The position numbers and the translations under genes are program-made. The notes under the pieces were generated by a model. The model had not been told where the DNA came from, made no database searches, and was given only the letters and a program-made list of their open reading frames with translations. A stretch of 63,987 nucleotides of DNA, filler included, from an uncultured Methanosarcinales archaeon (GTDB taxonomy: Archaea; Nanobdellota; Nanobdellia; Woesearchaeales; UBA12501): the NCBI GenBank assembly GCA_964397315.1. It is 4 parts of 4 records of this genome, joined end to end, with 100 filler letters (N's around TTAATTAATTAA, not from the genome) between each part and the next. Parts side by side here need not be neighbours in the genome. Positions count along the whole stretch, not along the records: positions 40,985 to 60,807 come from CAYNHV010000023.1; 3 more parts are not named here. One strand, given 5' to 3'. This document shows positions 5,110 through 60,580 of this stretch, piece after piece. The first letter of the stretch is position 1. The number at the start of each line of letters is the position of its first letter.

Positions 5110-5522
5110 ATCATCCTCTTTACGAGGTCATTTATCCTATCTCCCCTGTATCCAAGGACACCTCCTCTTGAGAAAGGCGCTTTTATGCCTTTCCTCTCAA
5201 ACCCGCCTCTTGGAGGGTGCAGCCTGAAGAAAGGCTTGGTTTTTTTGCCATCCTTAGGGCTCTTCTCTCCTCTTTTATCTATCAGCAGTTTGAGGGTCTC
5301 TTCATTAAGGTCGCCCCAGGTTATGTAATCCTTCACTTTCTTTATCATTCCCGTGTTCTGAGGGGTTTTTTCCAGCACAACGCAGCAGTTCTTCCTTAAC
5401 AGCCTCATCATCTCAAGAGTTTCCCGTATGTCTTTTCTTATGCCTGTCAGGCCTCTCACAAGTATGACTGCTGCCAGCTCCTTGCTTCCGCTTTTTGACT
5501 CCTTTCCAGCTGTCTCACTCAT
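5106..5522 (-). CDS. rpl30: 50S ribosomal protein uL30
   Basis: GMIKKVKDYITWG, FRLHPPRGGF; start at MSETAG. Confidence 0.95.
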   Translation of the reverse strand: MSETAGKESKSGSKELAAVILVRGLTGIRKDIRETLEMMRLLRKNCCVVLEKTPQNTGMIKKVKDYITWGDLNEETLKLLIDKRGEKSPKDGKKTKPFFRLHPPRGGFERKGIKAPFSRGGVLGYRGDRINDLVKRMI

Positions 5523-6372
5523 TTTTAACTGCCCCCTCTGATATCCCCAGGATTTCATTATGGTCAGGCAGGGTTTTTACTTCCATCAGCTTCTTGAGGG
5601 CGTTGAAGCAGGCCACAATGAGGTTTCCCCTGCTTGATGTCTTTCCCTGTGTTTTTGACCACACATCCTTTATGCCTGCCATCTCCAGAATCTTCTTGCA
5701 CTCGCTTTCTATGCAGAGGCCCTTTCCCTTTGGGGCAGGTATCAGCCTGACTTTCACAGAGCCCACCTTTGCCTCTACAGCAAAGGGTATTGAGTGGGGG
5801 CTGCTGCAGCTGCACTGCCACGAGCCGCAACCTCTTCTTATCTTTATGACGTTCAATTTTGCGTTTCTGAAAGCCTTCTCTCTTGCAGGCACTGTCTCCT
5901 TGGCCTTTCCAAAGCCCACACCCACTATGCCATTCTTGTTCCCCACCACTGCGGCTGTTGAGAACTTGGGCTTGTTGCCTTCCTGAGTCTTCTTCTGTGT
6001 CTGCTTGAATACTCTTCTCTGCCCCCCTCCAAATTTTCCTTTTGACTGGCCGAAAAGGAGGAGTTCTGAGGCAAGTTCTGGAAGGAGAAGGTCAACTATC
6101 TCGGGCTCCATTATTCTTGATCCCTCGTCCAGTACCTCCTCTATGTCCGTTATGTCTCCTGTTGTTACCCTTCTTCCTATCCCTGTCTTTGGGGTCCAGC
6201 CCTCTACGCTTTTCTTTTCAGGGGCTTCTTTCAGGAGTTCTTCAGGATCCTTTGGAGTCTCCTCAGATTCTTTGTCCTTTGCAATCTCTGTGCCTTCAGG
6301 GAGATTTCTCTCCTGCTCCTGAACTTCTTTCTTTGCTGCTGTTTCCTCTTCTGATTTCGCGCCTTCCATCAT
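5515..6372 (-). CDS. rps5: 30S ribosomal protein uS5
   Basis: WTPKT.IG, RGCGSW.C.C..PHS, PAPKGKGL; acidic N-terminal extension. Confidence 0.97.
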   Translation of the reverse strand: MMEGAKSEEETAAKKEVQEQERNLPEGTEIAKDKESEETPKDPEELLKEAPEKKSVEGWTPKTGIGRRVTTGDITDIEEVLDEGSRIMEPEIVDLLLPELASELLLFGQSKGKFGGGQRRVFKQTQKKTQEGNKPKFSTAAVVGNKNGIVGVGFGKAKETVPAREKAFRNAKLNVIKIRRGCGSWQCSCSSPHSIPFAVEAKVGSVKVRLIPAPKGKGLCIESECKKILEMAGIKDVWSKTQGKTSSRGNLIVACFNALKKLMEVKTLPDHNEILGISEGAVKNE

Positions 6373-6947
6373 GATCCTCCTGTGATATTCTTCTTTATAC
6401 TCTCAAAATATGCGTTTATGTCCTCTGGTTTGATGTTCTCTTTCCTGTAATGTGAAAACCTGGCATCATCCCCTTTCTCTCCCGACATCTTAAGGACGTC
6501 GCCTATGGCCTTCCCATTTATCTTTTCCTCAGGGGGGGCCATATCCTCGGGAAAAGGAATTTTTAATCCGCTGTCCGCTGCTCCTTTTACAGCAGCGTAT
6601 AATCTTGAACCTTTTGTTGACGAGTGCAAGCCTATATCAACGACAGCCTCTTTTACTCCCTTCTCTGCCGCCTTTTTTCCTGCAAGGAAGCCTGCAAGAT
6701 ATGCTGACGGGATGTTGCCTCCGGATGTCTTAAGGCCGAATTTTTTTAGGTCGTTTGTCCTGGCGCTGACAATAACCTCATCCCCTCCCCGGTTGTATTT
6801 TACAATCTGGACTGTCATGTTCTTCAGGGACTTTCTTATGACAAACCTTGCCTTTCCTGATTTCAGGAGGGATATTCTTTTCCTGTAGTCTGTCCTGCCC
6901 TCCCTTTTTCTTCTGAATCCCACCGAGTATGTGTTTTTACCTTTCAT
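6369..6947 (-). CDS. rpl18: 50S ribosomal protein uL18
   Basis: RRKREGRTDY.KR..LL, N.PSAYL.G. Confidence 0.97.
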   Translation of the reverse strand: MKGKNTYSVGFRRKREGRTDYRKRISLLKSGKARFVIRKSLKNMTVQIVKYNRGGDEVIVSARTNDLKKFGLKTSGGNIPSAYLAGFLAGKKAAEKGVKEAVVDIGLHSSTKGSRLYAAVKGAADSGLKIPFPEDMAPPEEKINGKAIGDVLKMSGEKGDDARFSHYRKENIKPEDINAYFESIKKNITGGS

Positions 6948-7396
6948 TTTTTCTTTATCAGGCCTCTCTCTTCTGCGTATACCTTAATGTGCCTTACATT
7001 CCTGAAAAAGCCGCCCTTGCATTTCCTGTAAAGGTCTCTGTAAACTCCCCCTTCTATGGCGCTCTTTCCCTTGAGCCTTCTGAGCAGCTTTCTTTGCGCC
7101 CTTATCTTGGACATCCATGTCTCTTTCTTGGGCGTTCTCGCTGTTTTCTTTCCCTTTCTGCTTCCCTTGCCCTTTCTTTTTCCCTTGCTCTTCTGCCTCT
7201 GCAGCTGCCTGCTCCTGCCTTTTGACTTGCTTTTCTTGTGCTCAAGCTGTATGGCCCCCTTGCTTATGAGGGCCCTCACATCTGTCTTTGTTATTGCCTC
7301 CTTTATCTCGTCCAGCCTGGTCTCGTCAAACCAGACTCTCTTTGGAGAGCATTTCATAACTTCCGATGCAAGCCGTTTCTGAACTTTCAGGTCCAT
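6944..7396 (-). CDS. rpl19e: 50S ribosomal protein eL19
   Basis: QKRLA..V.KC...RVW, G.GSRKG, W...IR..R. Confidence 0.97.
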   Translation of the reverse strand: MDLKVQKRLASEVMKCSPKRVWFDETRLDEIKEAITKTDVRALISKGAIQLEHKKSKSKGRSRQLQRQKSKGKRKGKGSRKGKKTARTPKKETWMSKIRAQRKLLRRLKGKSAIEGGVYRDLYRKCKGGFFRNVRHIKVYAEERGLIKKK

Positions 7397-38912: not shown

Positions 38913-39073
38913 GGGACATTCGCTTTGCTCAGTCCCACGAACTGCCTGTAATCTTAAAATAATGACCCCAAGGGGATTCTGAACGAGCGTCACCACTACC
39001 CTCGGAAGCGAAGCTGGTGGGACATTCGCTTTGCTCAGTCCCACGAACTGCCTGTAATCTTAAAATAATGACC
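38913..39073. repeat. tRNA-associated hairpin mini-element with duplicated tRNA-Arg 3' end (~55-bp tandem duplication)
   Basis: GGGACATTCGCTTTGCTCAGTCCC...AATAATGACC occurs twice; core homologous to 54752-54819. Confidence 0.7.
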
Positions 39074-40984: not shown

Positions 40985-41039
40985 TCACGAGGAGAATTTT
41001 TTCGAGGAAATTGAACTTCCCTTAAGCCCGATGTTAGTT
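40985..41039 (+). repeat. attC-like site 1 (right half only, truncated by the contig end)
   Basis: ...CTTAAGCCCGAT-GTTAGTT, same right end as sites 5 and 6. Confidence 0.7.
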
Positions 41040-41088
41040 GCAATTATTTTCAAGGGCTAAAAATGAGAAGGGGGGACAATTTCAAGAA

Positions 41089-41718
41089 TTACTTTATTGC
41101 TTCAATATCAAATGCTTTCATTTCATCAAAATATATAGTTGGTTTGATCTTAAATTGAGAAAATTTAGATAATATTTGTTTAATTTCTTTTTTAGAAAAA
41201 TAGTGATGAGCCATATGTGGATCATCTTCCATGCCGCCTAAAAAAGTATTTGCTTCAATTTCCTTACCTCTTCCATAACTTGCATCTTTAATTGACATAA
41301 ACTCAGTTACGAGCATGCCTTTAGGTTTAAGAATTCTATATATTTCATCAACTGCTTCTTGATTATCTTTTAATAATCCATGACTTAGAACAAAAATACA
41401 AATTATTGCATCAAAATAATTGTCTGGATAAAAAGTGTGCTTTATATCTGCTACTTTGTAATTAATAGTGCGTAAGCCAATTTTTTCAGCTTTCTTTTTA
41501 GTAATTGATATGCCTGTTTTAGATGCATCTAATGCATAAACTAAAAAGCCTTCTTGAGCAAAGAATAAAGTATTTCTACCAGTCCCAGATCCTAAATCTA
41601 AAATCTTTTTGTATTTATGTTCTCTAAAAATCTGAGCATACTTTTTAATTCGGGGTATTATCTTAGGATACAAATCCCCATGCTTTTTATAAACTATTTC
41701 CCAACCTTCTTCTTTCAT
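41089..41718 (-). CDS. Class I SAM-dependent methyltransferase (cassette 1)
   Basis: ILDLGSGTGR, DAS, FDAI, IYRILKP.G. Confidence 0.9.
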   Translation of the reverse strand: MKEEGWEIVYKKHGDLYPKIIPRIKKYAQIFREHKYKKILDLGSGTGRNTLFFAQEGFLVYALDASKTGISITKKKAEKIGLRTINYKVADIKHTFYPDNYFDAIICIFVLSHGLLKDNQEAVDEIYRILKPKGMLVTEFMSIKDASYGRGKEIEANTFLGGMEDDPHMAHHYFSKKEIKQILSKFSQFKIKPTIYFDEMKAFDIEAIK

Positions 41719-41906
41719 ATAAAATGTTTAATATTTAAAACATTAATAAATGTTACTAAAATTCTTGAAATGAAATTGTCCCCCTGTTATTGTTGGTTCT
41801 TGATAGTCGCTATTCGCTCTTTTGATAGAACACCCTTGAAAATAACTCTTCGGGATTTTTTGCTTCGCAAAAATCGTTGCACTATCCCTCGGTCACTTCG
41901 TGACGC

Positions 41907-42030
41907 AACTAACAGCGATTAAAACTCCGCTCACTTGCAGTTCGCTACGCCCTTCGGTTTTGTGGGTTGCCTCAAAACCTACGGGGAAATAAATCCTTCG
42001 GATTTACTTCTCTTAATCGCGATGTTAGTT
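41907..42030 (+). repeat. attC-like site 2 (124 bp)
   Basis: AACTAAC-AGCGATTAA ... TTAATCGC-GAT-GTTAGTT paired ends with internal CTTCG hairpins. Confidence 0.85.
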
Positions 42031-42162
42031 TCAATTTTTTCGGGGGCTATAAAGATAATGGGGCACACTCTTGATAGTGCTACGCACTCTATTCTTTAAC
42101 TAAATGAATTTGGGAAATCTAGAAGAAATACTAAAAAAATAGTGGGCTAAAATAAGAAGAAA

Positions 42163-42630
42163 TTAGGACAATTTCTCTTTATCCAATAATTGCTTTAACT
42201 TTTGTAATGCTACTTTATTATTCTCCCATTTTAACAAGCTTAATGCTTTATCAAATCGAACCCATTCAAAAGTTTCATGTTCTGGATAAATGTTATTATG
42301 AATAGATATTGATAAGTTTGGATTAACTTCAAAACCAAACACATATTCAGTAATAGTGGGTATTGGTTCTCCTGTAAGATAATGTTTGTTTATCTCAAAG
42401 AGATCCACATTTTCAATGACTCTAGTAATATTTTCTTTTTTAATGCTTGCTTCTTCTAATAGTTCTCTATATGCCGCGTCTAGTTTTGAGTTATCGCTTT
42501 TTTCTAACCCGCCACATGGAGGTTGCCAGAATCCACCTTTTTCTGGAATCCTTTTTAATAAAAGGAACTCAAAAAAACCTTTATTTTTTCTAAACACAAT
42601 ACATTCTATTCGCGTAGTTCTCATTTTCAT
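42163..42630 (-). CDS. NUDIX hydrolase (NudB/dATP pyrophosphohydrolase-like; cassette 2)
   Basis: LLLKR, FWQ..GG.E.....AA.RELLEE Nudix box, EH..FEW. Confidence 0.9.
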   Translation of the reverse strand: MKMRTTRIECIVFRKNKGFFEFLLLKRIPEKGGFWQPPCGGLEKSDNSKLDAAYRELLEEASIKKENITRVIENVDLFEINKHYLTGEPIPTITEYVFGFEVNPNLSISIHNNIYPEHETFEWVRFDKALSLLKWENNKVALQKLKQLLDKEKLS

Positions 42631-43826
42631 TTAACTCCTGACAATTTACAATATGTACTCCCTTCTGGATTTAATTGCCCATATAATTCCATTTCTAATG
42701 TAAATCCTGAACATTTTTTTCCATAATCAATACATTGATCACATCTTTCTTTAAATTGCTTGCTATTTTGTCTAATTGTCTGAAGTCTTTTGTTATATCT
42801 CCAAACATTTAAGAGAGAATACCTTTCAGAAACAATATTTCCTAGAACCAATTCATCTCTTAATTGTGGATTTACATATAATACACAACCTCCAGCATAT
42901 AAATCCCCATTTGACATTATATTAAATCTAGTAAATCCATCTGAACCTCCTTCCATTAAACCAAATTGTTCTGAATTAATGGAGTTTTCTCTCAAACTAC
43001 TGCCTCTGGTCCTAACTTCTAAATTAGGATATTCAGCTTTCAATTCATCCACTTTAATCATAAAAACGCTTAATTCATCATAATCTAAGAGTTTATCTTT
43101 TATTTTTGAAGCTCTACCAATCGGTCTTGGATGAAAGAAACTTATATCATAACAAAATTCATTCGCAAAATCTAAAAGTTTTCTTACGTCTTCTTCATTA
43201 ATTAAAGAAGTAACTACGGAATTTATGGTAACTCTACAACCAGCATAACTTAATTGCTTAATTGATTCTGTTGCTTTGTCAAATGTTCCTTTGCCTCTAA
43301 TATAATTATTTCCCTCCCTAAAACCATCAAGACTAATACTAACTTCATCTGGATTTATTTCAATTAATTTTTCTAAGGTATTTTGGGTATATAAACCATT
43401 TGAGTTTAATGAGATTGTTAATCCGATTTCTTTTGCTCGTTTTAATATTGTATCCCATCCTTCTTTAAGGGTTGGTTCACCTCCGCTAAAACGGACATCA
43501 AATACTGAGTCATTACTTAATCCTTCAATAACTTTTATTGATTGTTCTAAACTTAGTTCATCATTTAATGGAACCCCAGAATTATTTAGACAAGTCTTGC
43601 ACCGAAGATTACAGGCGGCAGTTAAATCAAAATAAACTCTTATCGGAGAATATATTATTGATGTGTCTTTAAAAAATGGCTGATTATCAAATTCGATTAT
43701 GGCGTTATTTTTCTTGAATTTTAAAAAATCTTCATTTAGTAAAAAGAAATGTTCAAAACTATTTGGATCAAATATGGTCTTTCCAAATGTTTCATTTCTG
43801 GATTTAACTTGCTTTTTTTCTTTCAT
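42627..43826 (-). CDS. Radical SAM protein with degenerate SPASM domain (cassette 2)
   Basis: CNLRCKTC, SGGEP, SLDG; C-terminal CDQC-x6-C. Confidence 0.9.
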   Translation of the reverse strand: MKEKKQVKSRNETFGKTIFDPNSFEHFFLLNEDFLKFKKNNAIIEFDNQPFFKDTSIIYSPIRVYFDLTAACNLRCKTCLNNSGVPLNDELSLEQSIKVIEGLSNDSVFDVRFSGGEPTLKEGWDTILKRAKEIGLTISLNSNGLYTQNTLEKLIEINPDEVSISLDGFREGNNYIRGKGTFDKATESIKQLSYAGCRVTINSVVTSLINEEDVRKLLDFANEFCYDISFFHPRPIGRASKIKDKLLDYDELSVFMIKVDELKAEYPNLEVRTRGSSLRENSINSEQFGLMEGGSDGFTRFNIMSNGDLYAGGCVLYVNPQLRDELVLGNIVSERYSLLNVWRYNKRLQTIRQNSKQFKERCDQCIDYGKKCSGFTLEMELYGQLNPEGSTYCKLSGVK

Positions 43827-44261
43827 TGAATGATGTTCTCATTTCTAAATAATTCCATTTCATATTCAAGTTCTTTTTTTTGATTTAGCCCTATGTATTG
43901 CATTTTTAACGATATACAATCCACTACTAGTTATATCTAAGCCTCTTCCATACCCATATCTTAAGGAATTTCTTGCACAATATTTTGGATTAGAGAATCT
44001 TCCAGACAATTCATAAAATCTTGCTATTGCGGATTCCCCTTTAATAAGTCCTAATTCGCATGGTGCTTCAAACATATACTCCATAAGAGCCGAATAATGC
44101 GATTGCCCAACATCAGAAGGATAAAATTTTGCCAATAATTCAGGATAAAACTCTAACACGTTTGTTTCCAATAATTCAAAATGATTAGCAATTTTAGATT
44201 TAATTTGTTCTCTTTTATTCCAACCATCTGGTTTTATTATAAATAAAGTTTTTTCTATCAT
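43823..44261 (-). pseudogene. ndk: Nucleoside diphosphate kinase-like, frameshifted in an A8 run near the 3' end
   Basis: TLFIIKPDG, S.R..YG, NAIH; removing one A gives SKKELEYEMELF...Q* with an ATGA overlap to the next gene. Confidence 0.75.
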
Positions 44262-44262
44262 T

Positions 44263-45456
44263 TTAATAAATACAATATGGATTTTTGTGTTCTGGATTTT
44301 TCTCTCTATAAAATTCCATTTCTATACTTGCTCCGGGACATTTTACATTCTTTTCGGGACATTTTAAACAAGATTCCTGTAATCTTAAACTTATTTCTCT
44401 AAATTCTTTTAATTTAGGAGAATTTCTCCAAATATCTAATAAGCTATAATCTTCTTCTTTGATATTACCTAAATAAAAATCAGGTCTCAAATGCGGAGTA
44501 TAACCTCCAGGCCAGATGGATCCATTAGGTAACAAATTAAACCTTGTAAAACCATCAGGACCTCCCATTTTTAATCCTACGCTCGATGTAACATCAGAAG
44601 ATATTGAATTAACTACCATAACTTTAGATCCATGTAAGATTCTCATCTGCGAATATTTCGGTTTAAGTTTTTCAATTTTTTCATCAAACTCATGTAACTC
44701 TTCGTAGGAAATTACCTGGTCTAAAATTCCAAGTGCTCTACCTGCTGTTCTCATATAAAAGAAATTGATTTCTTCAACAAATCTTCCAGCTAAGTCCAAA
44801 ATTTCTTCAAGATTGTTAGCAGCTCCTTTAGTTAAAACTGTGTTTATTCTTAAATGAGCGCCTTGTTTATGGAGATCTTCGAGTGTCTTAACAGTTCTTT
44901 CGTAGTTTCCTTTACCCCTTATATAATCATGAAAATCCTGACCTCCATCAATGCTAATAGTTATTTGTTCTAAATCCAAACTTGCTAATTGATCAATAGT
45001 TTTTTCAGGATTTCTATAAACTCCATTAGTGTTCAAAGATACAGAAAAACCCAAATCTTTTGCATAACTTAATATTTCAAACCAATCAGGTCTTGCAGTA
45101 ACTTCTCCCCCGCTAAATCTAATATCAAAAACATTGTCATTCCTTAACCCATCTAAAGTTTTTGTTATTTCTTCAGTAGTCATTTCATCAGATTTAGCTT
45201 TTCCAGACTGATTAAAACAGGTTTTGCATCTAAGAAGACAAGCAGAAGTCAACTCAAAATAAATTCTTATAGGAGAATAAATTATATCATCTGGTGCTTC
45301 GGACAAATCCGCAGTCCATTTTTCAAAATCTTCAACCTCTATATCTGAAAATTTCAAATCATCTGCACTTGATAAAAATTTATGGCGCATTCTAACTTTA
45401 TCAAAGAGAGTATATCCAAACTTTTCATCACGTAAAATAAACCTTTTAGCACTCAT
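44263..45456 (-). CDS. Radical SAM protein with degenerate SPASM domain (cassette 2; paralog of 42627-43826)
   Basis: CLLRCKTC, SGGE, SIDG; C-terminal CLKC-x6-C. Confidence 0.9.
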   Translation of the reverse strand: MSAKRFILRDEKFGYTLFDKVRMRHKFLSSADDLKFSDIEVEDFEKWTADLSEAPDDIIYSPIRIYFELTSACLLRCKTCFNQSGKAKSDEMTTEEITKTLDGLRNDNVFDIRFSGGEVTARPDWFEILSYAKDLGFSVSLNTNGVYRNPEKTIDQLASLDLEQITISIDGGQDFHDYIRGKGNYERTVKTLEDLHKQGAHLRINTVLTKGAANNLEEILDLAGRFVEEINFFYMRTAGRALGILDQVISYEELHEFDEKIEKLKPKYSQMRILHGSKVMVVNSISSDVTSSVGLKMGGPDGFTRFNLLPNGSIWPGGYTPHLRPDFYLGNIKEEDYSLLDIWRNSPKLKEFREISLRLQESCLKCPEKNVKCPGASIEMEFYREKNPEHKNPYCIY

Positions 45457-45710
45457 TACTACTAATAAATAACAACAAATATATAAAGATTTTGTTTAAA
45501 AATATAAATAATTTCAGGAATAGAAATTAACTACTCTTCTTCGCCCCAAAACCCCTACGAATAGCAGTAAAGATTTCCCCAATTATAGATGTAAAATAAC
45601 GAGTGTGCCCCTTGATGTATGTTCTAGATGGTCGCTATTCGCTCCAAAGATTGAACGCCCCCGAAAAAACTTTTCGGACGAAATTTTCCCACACTTCGTA
45701 TGGGAAAAGA

Positions 45711-45840
45711 AACTAACAGGAATTTAACGGTTCGCAGGGTCGGCTTCGCCTAAAACGCCAAGCGTTTTCCTCTGCTCTCCCAAATTCAAAATTTGTGGGT
45801 TGCCTCAAATTTTGAACTTCGTTAAATTCCTCAGTTATAT
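45711..45840 (+). repeat. attC-like site 3 (130 bp)
   Basis: AACTAAC-AGGAATTTAACG ... CGTTAAATTCCTCA-GTTATAT. Confidence 0.85.
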
Positions 45841-45902
45841 TCAATTATTTTTCAGCCCCTAAATAGAAATCTTTATGAACTTTAATATATAATCTTATTA
45901 TT

Positions 45903-46163
45903 ATGAGTGATTTTGAAAAAAGGCTTAATGCAATTGAGCAAAGAAACAAGAAAGTTGAATCAGATAAAGCTTGGGAAACAAGCTGGTCAAGAAAAATAAT
46001 AATAGCCGTTTTAACTTACGCCACAATAGTATTATTTTTCTTTGTTGCTCAATTGCCAAAACCATTCATTAATTCTATTGTTCCAACAGCTGGTTTTGTT
46101 CTTTCAACATTATCCTTGCCTTTTTTCAAAAAAATATGGTTGAAGTATGGGGCTAAAAAATAA
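45903..46163 (+). CDS. Small two-TM membrane protein (cassette 3)
   Basis: RN.KVE.DKAWETSW.R followed by 2 TMs; own TATA box. Confidence 0.8.
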   Translation: MSDFEKRLNAIEQRNKKVESDKAWETSWSRKIIIAVLTYATIVLFFFVAQLPKPFINSIVPTAGFVLSTLSLPFFKKIWLKYGAKK

Positions 46164-46214
46164 CTCTGAAATTTCCCTTCGGGACGTTGCACTAAAATTC
46201 AGCCCTAACGGGGA

Positions 46215-46240
46215 ATATAACAGGAATTCCGAGGTTATGC
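46215..46240 (+). repeat. Minimal attC-like site 4 (26 bp)
   Basis: ATATAAC-AGGAATTCCGAG-GTTATGC. Confidence 0.7.
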
Positions 46241-46378
46241 TCAATTTTGATTTTTCTGGATTGTTTTTGAAAGATTCTTGACGGCAGCAACAACAAGGGA
46301 TTCATACACGGTCAGCCTTCGCTTCGCTCAGTCTGCCCTATTCGCAAAGGAAAAAACCCCACTGCGCAGGGTGAAAGA

Positions 46379-46490
46379 GCATAACAGGGCTTAAACGGTT
46401 CGAAACGACCGCCTCCGGCTATTTTGCCAAGCAAAATTCGTTCCTCCCCCAAATTTGCTACGCAAATCTCGCTTACGCCCGATGTTATGC
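46379..46490 (+). repeat. attC-like site 5 (112 bp)
   Basis: GCATAAC-AGGGCTTAA ... TTACGCCCGAT-GTTATGC. Confidence 0.85.
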
Positions 46491-46564
46491 TCAATTCAGA
46501 AAAAATGGTGGATGTAATTTGCGATTAGATAGTTTTTTATAATAGCTTTGTATTAATTCATTAA

Positions 46565-46945
46565 ATGGATACAAACCAACCCCAAAATCTCACCAAAAAA
46601 ACAGCAATGAAAAGATTCCTAATAATTTTAGTTGGCACAATTATCTTTGCTTTAGTATTTGTATATTTACAACATGGCAGAATTCAAAGTACTATTTTAA
46701 TTGCTTTTGCAATCGTCGTTCCTATCATGATAATAAGTGCAATAGTTGGTTTTAAGTATCGCGATTCGATTGCAAATCTTAAAAATAAGTTATGGTACTT
46801 CCTTCTAATTATTGGAATACTGATGGCAATAATCAATTTAGTATTGGTTTTTTTGGAAGGAAGCAATTTTAATTATTATCTTCAGATTGGGATTGGTTTG
46901 ATGTTTGTAATTTACTCTATCTACAAGATAAAAAACACCCCATAA
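46565..46945 (+). CDS. Four-TM membrane protein (cassette 5)
   Basis: 126 aa, four hydrophobic segments, TTTTTATAATA promoter. Confidence 0.8.
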   Translation: MDTNQPQNLTKKTAMKRFLIILVGTIIFALVFVYLQHGRIQSTILIAFAIVVPIMIISAIVGFKYRDSIANLKNKLWYFLLIIGILMAIINLVLVFLEGSNFNYYLQIGIGLMFVIYSIYKIKNTP

Positions 46946-47014
46946 TAACATTTTTTCTGAACTCGAAATTTTTGCCTCCGGCATCGTTGCACTAAAATTC
47001 AGCCCTAACGGAGA

Positions 47015-47039
47015 GCATAACAGGGCCCCGATGTTAGTT
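47015..47039 (+). repeat. Minimal attC-like site 6 (25 bp)
   Basis: GCATAAC-AGGGCCCCGAT-GTTAGTT. Confidence 0.7.
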
Positions 47040-47058
47040 GTAATTTGTAATCTAAAAC

Positions 47059-47550
47059 CTAGCTATAATCATAATGTAATTTTTCAAGAAGAGTATATAA
47101 TTTCCTATCCACAGAAATGCATAATTCTAGTTTATCATCAAAAGACATAGAAGAATATCCTTCGGTTTCTGGAAAAGGATTGATTGTTAAATCATTTCTA
47201 TTTAGAACTATATTCAATCTCATTAATCCAACTCCTGCATGAGTTCCCCAACAATTCAATCCCAATTTATTATGTCTTTTATGCCAATCATATTCTTCTT
47301 CTGAAAAAGAATATCTTAAATTATGCATTTCTTGATGAACATTAGTTCCCATATCAATTGGATAAGTTCCTAACAAATAATATTCTAATCTAGAAACTAT
47401 TTCTGTTGCGTTTCCATTAATTATTCCCGCTACATTAGGAACTTCTCTATATGTTGGTTCAAAAAACTGAAACGAATATTTTTCTTCAAAATGTTTAATC
47501 CATTTTGCATGTGCAGTTTTTTGTTCTGGAACTAATGTCTTCATATTCAT
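47059..47550 (-). CDS. Hypothetical protein (cassette 6)
   Basis: 163-aa AT-rich ORF filling the cassette, own TATA box. Confidence 0.75.
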   Translation of the reverse strand: MNMKTLVPEQKTAHAKWIKHFEEKYSFQFFEPTYREVPNVAGIINGNATEIVSRLEYYLLGTYPIDMGTNVHQEMHNLRYSFSEEEYDWHKRHNKLGLNCWGTHAGVGLMRLNIVLNRNDLTINPFPETEGYSSMSFDDKLELCISVDRKLYTLLEKLHYDYS

Positions 47551-47670
47551 ATATTACGGAAATTATATGCTCATTATAAAGCTTTTGACGGTTTTAGATT
47601 ACAAACTCTTCGGGATTTTTTCACTTCGTGAAAAACCACTTGCAGTTATCCCTCGGTCACTTCGTGACAC

Positions 47671-47695
47671 AACTAACAGGAATCCGATGTTACTC
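47671..47695 (+). repeat. Minimal attC-like site 7 (25 bp), array terminus
   Basis: AACTAAC-AGGAATCCGAT-GTTACTC; GC content returns to host level immediately after. Confidence 0.7.
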
Positions 47696-47696
47696 C

Positions 47697-48152
47697 TCAA
47701 AGGAATCTGCTCATTATGCTGAGGTCCTCACCATCCACGAAGTGGCTCCTGAGAAGTCCTTCCTCTTCAAATCCTGTAGAGGTGTAGAATTTTTTGTACT
47801 CCTGGAATGTCAGCGCGTGCAGCTTTCTTATGCCTCTCTTCCTGGAAATCTCAATGATGCTCTCAAGAATCTCCCTTCCATTACCTTTCCCCCTGTGCCG
47901 GGGCCACACAACCAGGTCTCTTATCTCTGCTGTGCCGCTCACATCAGTGATGAGAGAGACAGTCCCTATCCTTTCCCCTCCTTTCATGTAGATAAAGAAC
48001 TCATCATTATTTATCTCTTTCTTGTGCCCCTGCTTAAGGTAATCCTCAGCCCACTTTTTGTCATACTGCGGAGCTCCCCTCTCCCTCCAGTACTCTGCAA
48101 GAAGCTCTGCAGCTTCGCTCTCATCCTCAGGTTTAAGTCTTTCCAGGGCCAT
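47697..48152 (-). CDS. GNAT family acetyltransferase
   Basis: LVV.P.HRGKG.G, FY...GF..EG. Confidence 0.9.
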   Translation of the reverse strand: MALERLKPEDESEAAELLAEYWRERGAPQYDKKWAEDYLKQGHKKEINNDEFFIYMKGGERIGTVSLITDVSGTAEIRDLVVWPRHRGKGNGREILESIIEISRKRGIRKLHALTFQEYKKFYTSTGFEEEGLLRSHFVDGEDLSIMSRFL

Positions 48153-52099: not shown

Positions 52100-52190
52100 T
52101 AGGCTAAAGGTTTCAAAAAGCTAAGCTTTTTGGAACACCAAAAATTGAAGATTTTTGATTCCCACGGCTTTAAGCAGCCGCTTTTGGCAG

Positions 52191-52260
52191 GCGGATTTCT
52201 GGAACTTTTAAAAGCCTTCATCTCCGCACCAAAGTGCGGAGCTTCCGGCTTATTAAAAGT
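52191..52260. repeat. 70-bp REP-like palindromic repeat, copy 1
   Basis: 68/70 identical to 56005-56074; CTCCGCAC-NAAA-GTGCGGAG hairpin. Confidence 0.8.
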
Positions 52261-52291
52261 GACTGCCGCCTTCCCCCTATGATAGAGCCTA

Positions 52292-54751: not shown

Positions 54752-54840
54752 CGTGGGACTAAAGCTTTAGCTTTATGTCCCACCGGGTTCGCTTCCGAGG
54801 GTAGTGGTGACGCTCTTCTAAATCCACCCCTCGCTATGCT
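54752..54840 (+). repeat. tRNA-associated hairpin mini-element followed by a 21-bp duplication of the tRNA-iMet 3' end
   Basis: GTGGGAC...GTCCCAC-TTCGCTTCCGAGGGTAGTGGTGACGCTC shared with 38983-39044 (reverse complement); 54820-54840 = 54713-54733. Confidence 0.8.
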
Positions 54841-55970: not shown

Positions 55971-56004
55971 AAAAAATCCGCAGCTTAAGCAGAGTTTTTG
56001 AAAA

Positions 56005-56074
56005 GCGGATTTTTGGAACTTTTAAAAGCCTTCATCTCCGCACTAAAGTGCGGAGCTTCCGGCTTATTAAAAGT
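56005..56074. repeat. 70-bp REP-like palindromic repeat, copy 2
   Basis: Matches 52191-52260. Confidence 0.8.
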
Positions 56075-56078
56075 AACA

Positions 56079-60120: not shown

Positions 60121-60328
60121 TCTCCAGGATTTACCACCTCCCTCTTTAGAGTTACAATCGCTTCGCCCGCCTCCCACCCATATACACAACTTGAGAGCAC
60201 CAACCTAGCCAGAGCGCACCCCAGCATATTACTGGGCTGGCTTATTAGAGGCAGGAGCTGGGAGTTGTGCTTTTCCAGAAGGTGTAAGCCTGCTAAGTGG
60301 TTCTGCAGAAAGGGTGGGAAGTACTATG
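60121..60328 (+). repeat. ~210-nt dispersed structured repeat, copy B
   Basis: CCAGAGCGC...GGCTTATTAGAGGCAGGAGCTGGGAGTTGTGC...GTAAGCC...AAGGGTGGGAAGTAC. Confidence 0.75.
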
Positions 60329-60356
60329 ATTAAAAGCCCCCCCACCCCCTAAATAT

Positions 60357-60580
60357 TTTGATTAATCCAGACCTGACCTCCGCCCCCAGCCGCATTTACA
60401 TATGGATAAAGCCCTCCCGCCACCCCCCCACATATGCTAATTGCACAAACACCAACCAGAGCGCACCTGAGCAAATTACTGGGCAGGGCTTATTAGAGGC
60501 AGGAGCTGGGAGTTGTGCAGACTTAGAAGAAAGTAACCTGCTGTTTGGTTGTGGAATAAGGGAGGGAATCACCATGAGGG
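60357..60580 (+). repeat. ~210-nt dispersed structured repeat, copy C
   Basis: TTTTGATTAATCCAGAC start identical to copy A; same core as copy B. Confidence 0.75.

Follow-up and report, generated by a model that had tools for sequence, protein, structure and literature searches.

The genes of a tandem array in this window (the whole stretch of DNA analysed, 63,987 nucleotides, made up of four contigs joined via N spacers) are bracketed by inverted repeats, which raises the question of what purpose such repeats serve and which system moves the cassettes. The array begins at the start of contig C23 (40985) and its parts are listed in Table 1. The cassettes are probably mobile units of an integron-like platform, which would move them as ssDNA dumbbells by means of a short, XerA-like tyrosine recombinase without the IntI I2 insertion.

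Arms closing the cassettes

The five outer arm pairs reported in the preliminary description were located with pairing of 13/13, 13/13, 14/15, 13/13 and 16/16, and the nested pairs of cassettes 1 and 2 were verified (14/14 and 10/10). The original list of five cassettes stands but overlooked a sixth, ORF-less unit without clear arms.

Table 1 Parts of the cassette array, in positions of the window.
Feature	Position	Strand	Details
Upstream linker end: left box (ACT-N5-TAA type) and 8-nt spacer	41015..41033	+	Ends at inferred crossover G|TTA; remainder cut by contig start 40985
Cassette 1 left end	41034..41056	+	11-nt right box (TTA-N5-AAT), then outer arm 41044-41056
Cassette 1 nested stem	41071..41084	+	Pairs with 41771-41784; stem extension ends at cargo stop codon
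Cargo 1: class I SAM methyltransferase, 209 aa	41089..41718	-	
Cassette 1 right end	41833..41913	+	Arm' 41833-41845, ACT, class A module 41846-41904, N5'-TAAC 41905-41913
Long attC-like linker	41913..42024	+	6-nt spacer, L'' with hairpin insert, terminal hairpins, left box 42006-42016, 8-nt spacer
Cassette 2 (3.7 kb)	42025..45717	+	Box and arm 42025-42047, nested stems, arm' 45657-45669, class C module, core 45709-45717
Cargo 2: radical SAM/SPASM, nucleoside diphosphate kinase, radical SAM/SPASM, NUDIX hydrolase	42163..45456	-	
Long attC-like linker 3' of cassette 2	45717..45834	+	
Cassette 3	45835..46221	+	Arm 45845-45859, class A module 46164-46212, core
Cassette 3 ORF, 86 aa	45903-46163	+	Stop codon inside arm'
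Collapsed linker, 14 nt	46221..46234	+	6-nt spacer fused to 8-nt spacer; left-box hairpin gone
ORF-less unit (46234-46385) and its long linker	46235..46484	+	Core match 5/5, arm only 7/12
Cassette 4	46485..47021	+	Arm 46495-46507, arm' 46949-46961, class A module, core
Cassette 4 membrane ORF, 126 aa	46565-46945	+	Stop 3 nt ahead of arm'
Collapsed linker, 13 nt	47021..47033	+	
Cassette 5	47034..47677	+	Arm 47044-47059, arm' 47590-47605, class A module, core
Cassette 5 ORF, 163 aa	47059-47550	-	Stop codon abuts arm
Collapsed linker, 13 nt, and degenerate terminal box	47677..47700	+	Array meets stop codon of GNAT gene
GNAT gene at array end	47697-48152	-	

Both arms were present on single contigs of run X1 for the cassettes at 41033, 45834, 46484 and 47033, while the 3.7-kb cassette was spanned by two contigs of that run and the array end (47677..47700) was bridged by one. 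No exact excision joint or circle was observed among the 12 joints listed from the contigs of run X1. In the host genome, which is 93% complete, a perfect inverted repeat of at least 13 nt brackets only 4 of 1191 ORFs of at least 100 aa, and a whole-genome scan with the cassette grammar described below returned 8 matches (5 in this array, 2 on contig C5 and 1 weak match on C56) versus 2 in reversed sequence. The arms are confined to cassette arrays and are not ordinary repeats found equally outside them, as both scans demonstrated. T-rich tracts do lie 3' of stop codons in the frames, which may double as terminators; as a sole explanation, however, terminators, chance repeats or an assembly artefact are scarcely credible, being contradicted by the shuffle, host-gene and contig controls.

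Arms pairing at 10/12 or better were detected in 78 of 139 junction-defined intervals of related genomes (shuffled mean 1.1, maximum 6) and in 49 of 57 core-matched intervals by junction-only detection, and closed none of 22 IntI cassette intervals used as a control. Junction-only detection replaced an earlier test on consecutive module matches, which had given 8/44 because other module classes intervene between matches and the score required an exact run. Across 135 cassettes with 109 distinct arm 10-mers, every arm position covaries and all four Watson-Crick pair types are seen; the cassette genomes are kin rather than independent samples. Arm mismatches were A.C (12) and G.T (8), with no clear strand bias. 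Pairing is kept while sequence varies, as first described, but the arms are not private to a cassette: 73 of the 135 cassettes fall into 18 arm families common to several genomes, with unrelated cargo. Identical cargo flipped inside one frame was not found among the 135 cassettes, so there is no evidence of the arms acting as inversion switches.

Modules, linkers and predicted folding

The cassettes follow the grammar G|TTA-N5-AAT-arm ... cargo ... arm'-ACT-[module]-N5'-TAA-C. On the bottom strand the cassette ends pair across the cargo as an 11-bp box containing one G.T pair, and this right box is prolonged outward by an arm of 14-16 bp and often by more nested stems. Only 95 of 153 cassettes have an N5 match of 5/5. 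Directly after arm', CT was found in 95 of 101 exact 13-nt arm matches in a search that did not demand it.

Four modules were present at the positions claimed for them, and their two variants do covary, with compensatory changes at 10/11 and 7/12 predicted stem pairs. The module is real, occurring in 41 of 135 cassettes, but is one of at least four classes, and cassette 2 bears another. It had been placed outside the attC; instead, it interrupts the right recombinase box, from which it loops out between positions 8 and 9 in the predicted bottom-strand fold, where the TTGCA element forms a mini-hairpin with a GCA loop. One phage cassette has a contiguous box and no module. In one module a group II intron was identified on the bottom strand, beside a hairpin and antisense to the array; none of three further group II or RT loci inspected lies in a module.

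The long linkers are attC-like, but 3 of the 6 downstream linkers are only 13-14 nt and therefore cannot be attC hairpins; across arrays, 45 of 111 linkers are shorter than 50 nt. A long linker folds into a matching left box, likewise broken by a hairpin, and the spacers pair in 50-65 of 65 cases with a 2-nt bulge. Junction type follows the recombinase group: 28 long and 2 compact of 41 in group 1, versus 4 long and 35 compact (5-7 nt, without a left-box hairpin) of 41 in group 2, for which 20 of 24 loci were retrieved as a test after the junction pattern had been noticed. Arrays beside group 2 recombinases keep arms and modules and have lost the attC-like hairpin, which makes the arm-closed stem the invariant part.

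When circular cassettes were folded, the arm and core stem formed at P 0.87-0.99 in 4 of 5 tested. In linear long-linker arrays the arms formed at P 0.96-0.98, the core stem between a cassette's own ends at P 0.16-0.30 and attC-type pairing at P 0.25-0.76, so that the own-end core stem does not dominate the prediction. Since one box is closed across the cargo and the linker supplies the matching left box, the excised circle is predicted to be a dumbbell with a dif-like 11-6-11 site. That each cassette folds with its gene looped out agrees with both the predicted folds of circularised cassettes and the arm covariation. The fold had been described as ssDNA or RNA. Folding held up, and the sequence data favour bottom-strand ssDNA over RNA: the loop bias (GNA triloops in 99 of 175 on the bottom strand versus 7 on the top, with UNCG on the top in 1-2 cases), the conserved G.T pair and the intron strand all point to such a substrate. 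Folding energies favour the bottom strand in 111/135 and 121/135 cassettes by DNA and RNA rules, respectively, and because both rules agree they do not separate DNA from RNA.

Cargo appears to carry its own promoter and faces either way. A TATA-like box lies inside the arms in 62 of 106 cassettes (shuffled 25), and single-ORF cassettes are oriented 43 plus and 43 minus; the IntI control gave 15 plus, 5 minus and 2 none, 3 of the minus cases being reverse-strand re-reads. No replication gene was found in this window's cassettes. These features bear on an alternative in which cassettes would be made or moved via an RNA folded by the arms and then processed, circularised or reverse-transcribed. 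A reverse transcriptase is encoded in 19 of 45 array genomes, an intron occupies one module, and 58 of 109 cassettes have their stop codon flush against the innermost stem. An mRNA started from a TATA-like box within the arms cannot, however, contain both arms; cargo orientation and the bottom-strand GNA loops also oppose this reading, and no reverse transcriptase was found in the host genome or in 26 of the 45 others. Rfam gave four weak matches in the array (E 0.16-2.9, all under the gathering score) and no family over threshold here or in five other arrays. An RNA intermediate is accordingly rated very improbable.

The recombinase, its attI-like site and a proposed mechanism

The co-occurring enzyme that the preliminary description anticipated was identified as a XerA-like recombinase on contig C53; recombinase and array lie on separate contigs, so we infer their linkage. 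The gene is divergent from an adjoining attI-like site, which is the same 11-6-11 site without insertions, an arrangement observed in 37 of 62 archaeal relatives, 0/20 IntI and 0/15 bacterial recombinases. Synteny between C53 and C23 gave no further link, the GNAT gene being absent from the matches of four of five relatives and weakly matched in the fifth. Among protein families the enzyme matches archaeal XerA best (203.5 bits, cut-off 220); the IntI profile TIGR02249 scored 175.8 bits, under its cut-off of 265, and no IntI exceeded cut-off in any of 45 array-bearing genomes. The R-K-H-R-H-Y residues of Xer-type recombinases are present, and the closest solved structures (4A8E, 5HXY) are Xer-type. 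The protein has ~45 aa fewer than IntI4, lacks the I2 insertion and has a KxR-to-HxLRH spacing of ~59 aa versus 103 in IntI. A C-terminal SPLD-like motif was found in 29 of 46 group 1 enzymes and 19 of 20 IntI. Deep nodes of the recombinase tree have support of 14-77, and no claim of ancestry to IntI is therefore made. A single-sequence structure model was poor (pLDDT 49) and was set aside. Plasmid and phage collections yielded distant recombinases only (<60% identity).

In the proposed mechanism, the enzyme would need a full Xer-type box, and the arms would therefore exist to hold that box shut across the gene. Because of the module and the 2-nt spacer bulge, no array junction would work as a double-stranded site and only folded ssDNA would recombine, with the insertions acting in place of attC extrahelical bases. 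A single strand exchange just 5' of TTA would integrate or excise a cassette, and replication would resolve the product, as in CTX phage and integrons. New cassettes would probably arise by cargo replacement in reusable frames, trimmed to promoter-ORF-stop.

The same platform could instead recombine through the attC-like linker alone, leaving arms and module as by-products of cassette birth (genes inserting into empty hairpin frames) or as aids to ssDNA stability or replication. Linear folds favour attC-type core pairing, unrelated cargo occupies the same frame in both orientations in 9 of 18 families, ORF-less frames exist (6/135) and N5 mismatches are tolerated. Entire arrays devoid of the attC-like hairpin nevertheless keep perfect arms, the first base of each arm coincides with the final base of the box, at a conserved AAT/ACT junction, and longer cassettes bear more nested stems (rho 0.32, 128 cassettes), which makes the linker-only account unlikely.

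Slightly less likely still is that Xer recombination acts on double-stranded DNA, as it does at Acinetobacter pdif modules or for IMEX at a housekeeping dif, the attI-like site being the chromosomal dif and the enzyme an ordinary XerA. The 11-6-11 geometry, the family match and the resemblance of compact junctions to dif sites fit this account, as does the presence of only one such recombinase gene in genome G000 (E<=1e-30) and likewise in single-contig G220. Against it, the left box at every junction is split by a module or the spacer is 8 nt, spacers vary among junctions that are all co-oriented, eight other XerA-like loci from DPANN records lack any such site or array in the sequence examined, and the arms are left unexplained. 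It could hold in part if the enzyme also resolves dimers.

The ssDNA dumbbell reading, with a recombination system distinct from one built on standard attC anatomy as originally suggested, is the one these data best support. A broader version is offered tentatively, as a possibility somewhat short of even. It would be a second, independent cassette platform, common among DPANN archaea, with every cassette a DNA dumbbell that folds by itself; two lineages of recombinase would draw on one pool but cut the folded site in different ways, one of them dropping the attC-like half, and empty frames that can be reused would give rise to new cassettes.

Distribution and relation to known systems

Of 401 genomes in the order, 241 matched the module-plus-core pattern, and the reversed control gave far fewer matches, which suggests a major route of accessory genes in DPANN archaea. 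Pattern scans of large collections yielded mostly chance matches, with 9 cassettes in 7 of 116 metagenome loci, 3 in 80 genome_contigs loci, 0 in 118 viral pattern loci and 0 in 80 viral recombinase loci. The exact grammar was thus not found in bacteria or phages of those collections. Looser cases were seen in one Thermoplasmatales-titled record and one phage. No published description of such a system was found in the literature searched. Integron surveys need IntI or canonical attC and would therefore miss most such arrays; attC clusters in the absence of IntI have been reported from at least 16 Nanoarchaeota genomes (PMC9668308), and some of these clusters may be this system.

De novo cassette formation is described as largely unknown (PMC5371416) and without a reliable model (PMC4792948); frames that are shared or empty, and cargo ending flush at its stop codon, are concrete substrates for testing it. 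It has been speculated that a Xer enzyme acting upon folded, IMEX-like DNA gave rise to integrons (PMC4792948). The present system has that layout, without I2. If the broader reading is true, the stage of Xer plus folded DNA that has been proposed before IntI would have a living model here, in which cassette genesis is testable. A small recombinase inserting ssDNA cargo of up to ~8 kb could also serve as a tool.

Archaeal XerA/dif shares the 11-6-11 geometry, but dif is described as a single chromosomal site (PMC5357621, PMC8371274), whereas arrays of interrupted sites with mobile cargo are found here. Acinetobacter dif modules likewise shuffle accessory genes between Xer-type sites; in the part of the source available, pdif sites are intact 28-bp sequences in C/D and D/C orientations without gene-bracketing arms or hairpin insertions (PMC13141974), unlike the co-oriented, interrupted junctions of this array. 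In CTX-phage-type IMEX, two distant inverted halves also fold in ssDNA to a dif-like site for an enzyme without I2 (PMC5357621, PMC4792948). Those halves lie 90 nt apart and the phage borrows host XerCD, whereas here they enclose 0.1-8 kb of cargo, the cassettes are non-autonomous, and a linked recombinase gene stands at the head of the arrays. Like group IIC-attC introns (PMC7923331), the single intron seen here sits on the bottom strand next to a hairpin and runs antisense to the array, but its target is the module rather than R'' of an attC. Retrons and other RT-linked RNAs have a cognate RT beside the structured element, and no such RT was found in this genome.

A close parallel is with integrons (IntI, attI and attC, including archaeal integrons and CALINs; PMC9668308), which share the recombinase gene divergent from an attachment site, the tandem array, GTT/AAC cores, a bottom-strand fold (predicted here) with unpaired features and the SPLD-like C-terminal motif. 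Integrons have the I2 insertion, an attC hairpin of 57-141 bp (R''/L''/L'/R') with single extrahelical bases, and mostly promoterless, co-oriented cargo. The system described here lacks I2 and has full 11-bp sequence boxes, a 2-nt spacer bulge, large hairpin inserts and cargo with its own putative promoter in either orientation; its site, unlike that of integrons, is closed across the gene by arms, and one lineage has no attC-like hairpin. Judged from sequence, the arms and the folded Xer-type docking site point to integron-like gene capture, differently built, in tiny archaea.

Inverted-repeat arms in the host genome and its relatives

The array spans 6.7 kb from the start of contig C23 of the host genome (1.47 Mb, 93% complete), from which the four contigs of the window, linked end to end by N spacers, are drawn, and has a GC content of 29–37% compared to ~46% for the host. 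The preliminary description reported that each cargo is bracketed by an inverted-repeat pair (arm and arm′) and that, in four cassettes, a hairpin module lies between arm′ and the AAC core. A sequence check of the window recovered every one of these arm pairs and modules at its exact position. Such inverted repeats bracket only 4 of 1191 host genes. Contigs from sequencing run X1 contained both arms of four cassettes and bridged the last module to a host gene; no circle or excision was seen among the 12 joints listed from them. The same architecture is present on host contigs C5 and C53. Other features and repeats are collected in the table.

Generality was assessed in 1.03 Mb, comprising 120 loci of related genomes (40 gathered via recombinase similarity and 80 via an arm-free module pattern) and three stretches of the host's own genome. 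Arms matching at 10 or more of 12 positions were found in 78 of 139 intervals whose junctions had been called without use of complementarity (shuffled mean 1.1, maximum 6), and many of the misses run across an undetected junction. Where the core N5 matched its complement, arms were present in 49 of 57 intervals; this core match is often imperfect among cassettes. An arm-based catalogue yielded 153 cassettes compared to 6 in reversed DNA, and removal of 18 weaker ones left 135 for analysis. Each of arm positions 2–13 was paired in 118–135 of these 135, and every one of the four pair types was represented from position 3 onward. This set was chosen for pairing; the unbiased test is the junction-defined scan of 139 intervals. 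As a control, 20 loci beside true integron integrase (IntI) genes of one bacterial order gave a small set of 22 attC-bounded intervals in 4 loci, 3 being reverse-strand re-reads. With position-free scoring, no interval among these 22 reached an arm match of 11/12, versus 46/57 and 74/139 here. Some genome tallies include unpublished genomes, on which no sequence-level claim rests.

Features and repeats in the window, the host genome and gathered loci
Feature	Location	Coordinates	Description
Four-gene cargo	window	42163–45456	two radical SAM/SPASM enzymes, nucleoside diphosphate kinase, NUDIX hydrolase; resembles a pathway for nucleotide modification
Second array	host C5	67177–69465	just upstream of methionyl-tRNA-synthetase-like gene start (gene named by eye)
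Lone decayed cassette-like unit	host C56, reverse strand	~434–1160	arm 10/12, core 2/5, outside all arrays; may be an insertion at a secondary site
Tandem module repeats	G239:C24	7975–8507	three, 250 nt apart
Group II intron	L149 (G539:C20), bottom strand	5270–7226	439-aa RT; inside cassette module, beside GCA mini-hairpin
Reverse transcriptase cargo	L296 (G533:C4)	~95000–97430	437-aa reverse transcriptase and 293-aa ORF; possibly a defence system
Phage Xer-like gene, then cassette	L324 (viral contig)	~5400–6100	cassette module-less, contiguous box, 3-bp arm
Direct repeat, 82 nt	window	52182–52263; 55996–56077	93% identical, with a hairpin inside; two large host genes lie upstream
Inverted copy, 41 nt	window	38985–39025; 54775–54815	95%, on two different contigs
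Repeat, 64 nt	window	38904; 39010	adjoins assembly gap
Two repeats	window	60209–60577	~248 nt apart, near C23 end

Cassette ends, predicted folding and cargo

The left end of a cassette reads G-TTA-N5-AAT, with the arm starting at the final T, and the right end reads arm′-ACT-module-N5′-TAA-C. Of 101 matches collected without CT as a criterion, 95 have CT immediately after arm′, and AAT therefore stands opposite ACT, giving a mismatch on the top strand and a G·T pair on the bottom strand. One phage cassette carries ACT-N5′-TAA without a module. Modules are 14–114 nt long and fall into four classes, of which class A forms a three-way junction with compensatory changes. GNA triloops numbered 99 of 175 on the bottom strand and 7 on the top; loops of this type are especially stable in DNA. 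Further stems are nested within the arms in 107 of 128 cassettes, their average number rising from 1.1 in the shortest cassette class to 2.0 in the longest (shuffled 0.2–0.3); in 67 of 81, the right strand holds the longer unpaired stretch.

When the window cassettes were circularised, both stems were predicted to fold at P 0.87–0.99 on either strand (4 of 5 tested). When the array was folded as a linear molecule, the core stem formed by a cassette's own ends was minor (P 0.16–0.30) compared to attC-type pairing (0.25–0.76), so the circle may be where the arms chiefly matter.

Single-ORF cassettes are equally divided between the two orientations (43 each), and a TATA-like box peak lies 25–34 nt ahead of the first ATG in 62 of 106 cases (shuffled mean 25, maximum 40). 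Of 109 cassettes, 58 have the stop codon no more than 6 nt from the innermost stem, and 3 have the start codon that close (permutation mean 18.8, maximum 31); as that stem was picked using ORF limits, the stop/start asymmetry is the safer result. Simple trimming could produce this asymmetry. Different genomes have arm families in common, around unrelated cargo, and both cargo orientations occur in 9 of 18 families. In public contigs, the window's linker ends continue into other arms. Frames of 117–160 nt lacking an ORF occur at loci L013 (twice), L287, L292 and L183.

Recombinases and the two junction types

Contig C53 encodes a 286-aa tyrosine recombinase, with the first cassette of an array directly upstream and divergent; the window array sits on a different contig. 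The enzyme reached the cut-off of neither the integron integrase model nor the archaeal XerA model, with a score nearer XerA, and aligned to two archaeal Xer structures without a long gap. Some 45 residues of IntI4 are missing from it, and the KxR-to-HxLRH spacing in these enzymes is ~59 aa versus 103 in IntI. No IntI exceeded the cut-off in any of 45 array-bearing genomes. Upstream of the gene, 37 of 62 archaeal relatives have a TAA-6 nt-TTA-N5-AAT site (18 of the others lack it by the strict pattern and 7 have too little DNA), as do 0/20 IntI and 0/15 bacterial genes. We infer the DPANN label for the host from the titles of records carrying relatives of this recombinase: Nanoarchaeota, Nanoarchaeia, Woesearchaeota and, in some cases, Methanosarcinales. 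A record titled Thermoplasmatales (L050) combines an arm-closed cassette and an attI-like site with a recombinase of group 1, reflecting either transfer or misbinning. At L524 (G094:C11), an Rfam RT-16 RNA precedes an RT gene flanked by small tyrosine recombinase genes.

Long linkers end in an ACT-N5-TAA-type box (A, C and T each in 54–56 of 65), with spacers paired in 50–65 of 65 and a 2-nt bulge; by eye, a hairpin splits the first half ahead of a conserved CCAAAT. Exact 6-nt junctions numbered 42 in 13 loci, several being whole arrays of them, and two compact-junction arrays adjoin sister recombinases. Among 20 further loci then gathered beside relatives of the compact-array recombinase, 15 had compact junctions and 5 had none within the DNA examined, as read by eye. 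Group 1, which includes the C53 enzyme, has bootstrap support of 94–99; at deeper nodes support was 14–77. In tallies drawn from kin rather than independent samples, junctions of group 1 (n = 41) were long in 28 cases and compact in 2, with 1 short, 1 other and 9 unread; those of group 2 (n = 41) were compact in 35 and long in 4, with 2 unread. Both junction types share frames, and linkers are long in one group 2 array (L132). The C5 array has compact junctions of 5–6 nt, yet a group 2 recombinase was not found in the host genome. The sole fold found to rebuild a box in compact arrays is the stem closed by the arms. The commonest short linker form is 14 nt (17 of 111); the window's three linkers of 13–14 nt fit loss of the left-box hairpin, and such junctions may be frozen. 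The proposed mechanism as a whole is considered probable.

Relation to integrons and dif

The literature searched, with most subscription journals outside its reach, described neither cassettes closed by arms nor recombinases that lack the I2 insertion and head cassette arrays. Related work was drawn on in part from bioRxiv 2022.02.06.479319, PMC9668308 and its Data S1, PMC5357621, PMC7923331, PMC5371416, PMC4792948, PMC13141974, PMC8138268 and PMC8371274. The attC sequences of PMC9668308 may bear on novelty. A passage of PMC8138268 calls the IntI-type insertion "not fully conserved" within an integron-like subgroup. In the attI-like site beside the recombinase gene, both boxes are unbroken around 6 nt, the geometry given for dif in passages of PMC5357621 and PMC8371274. 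The system is real and general, and it lies outside the integron definition yet is integron-like in layout.
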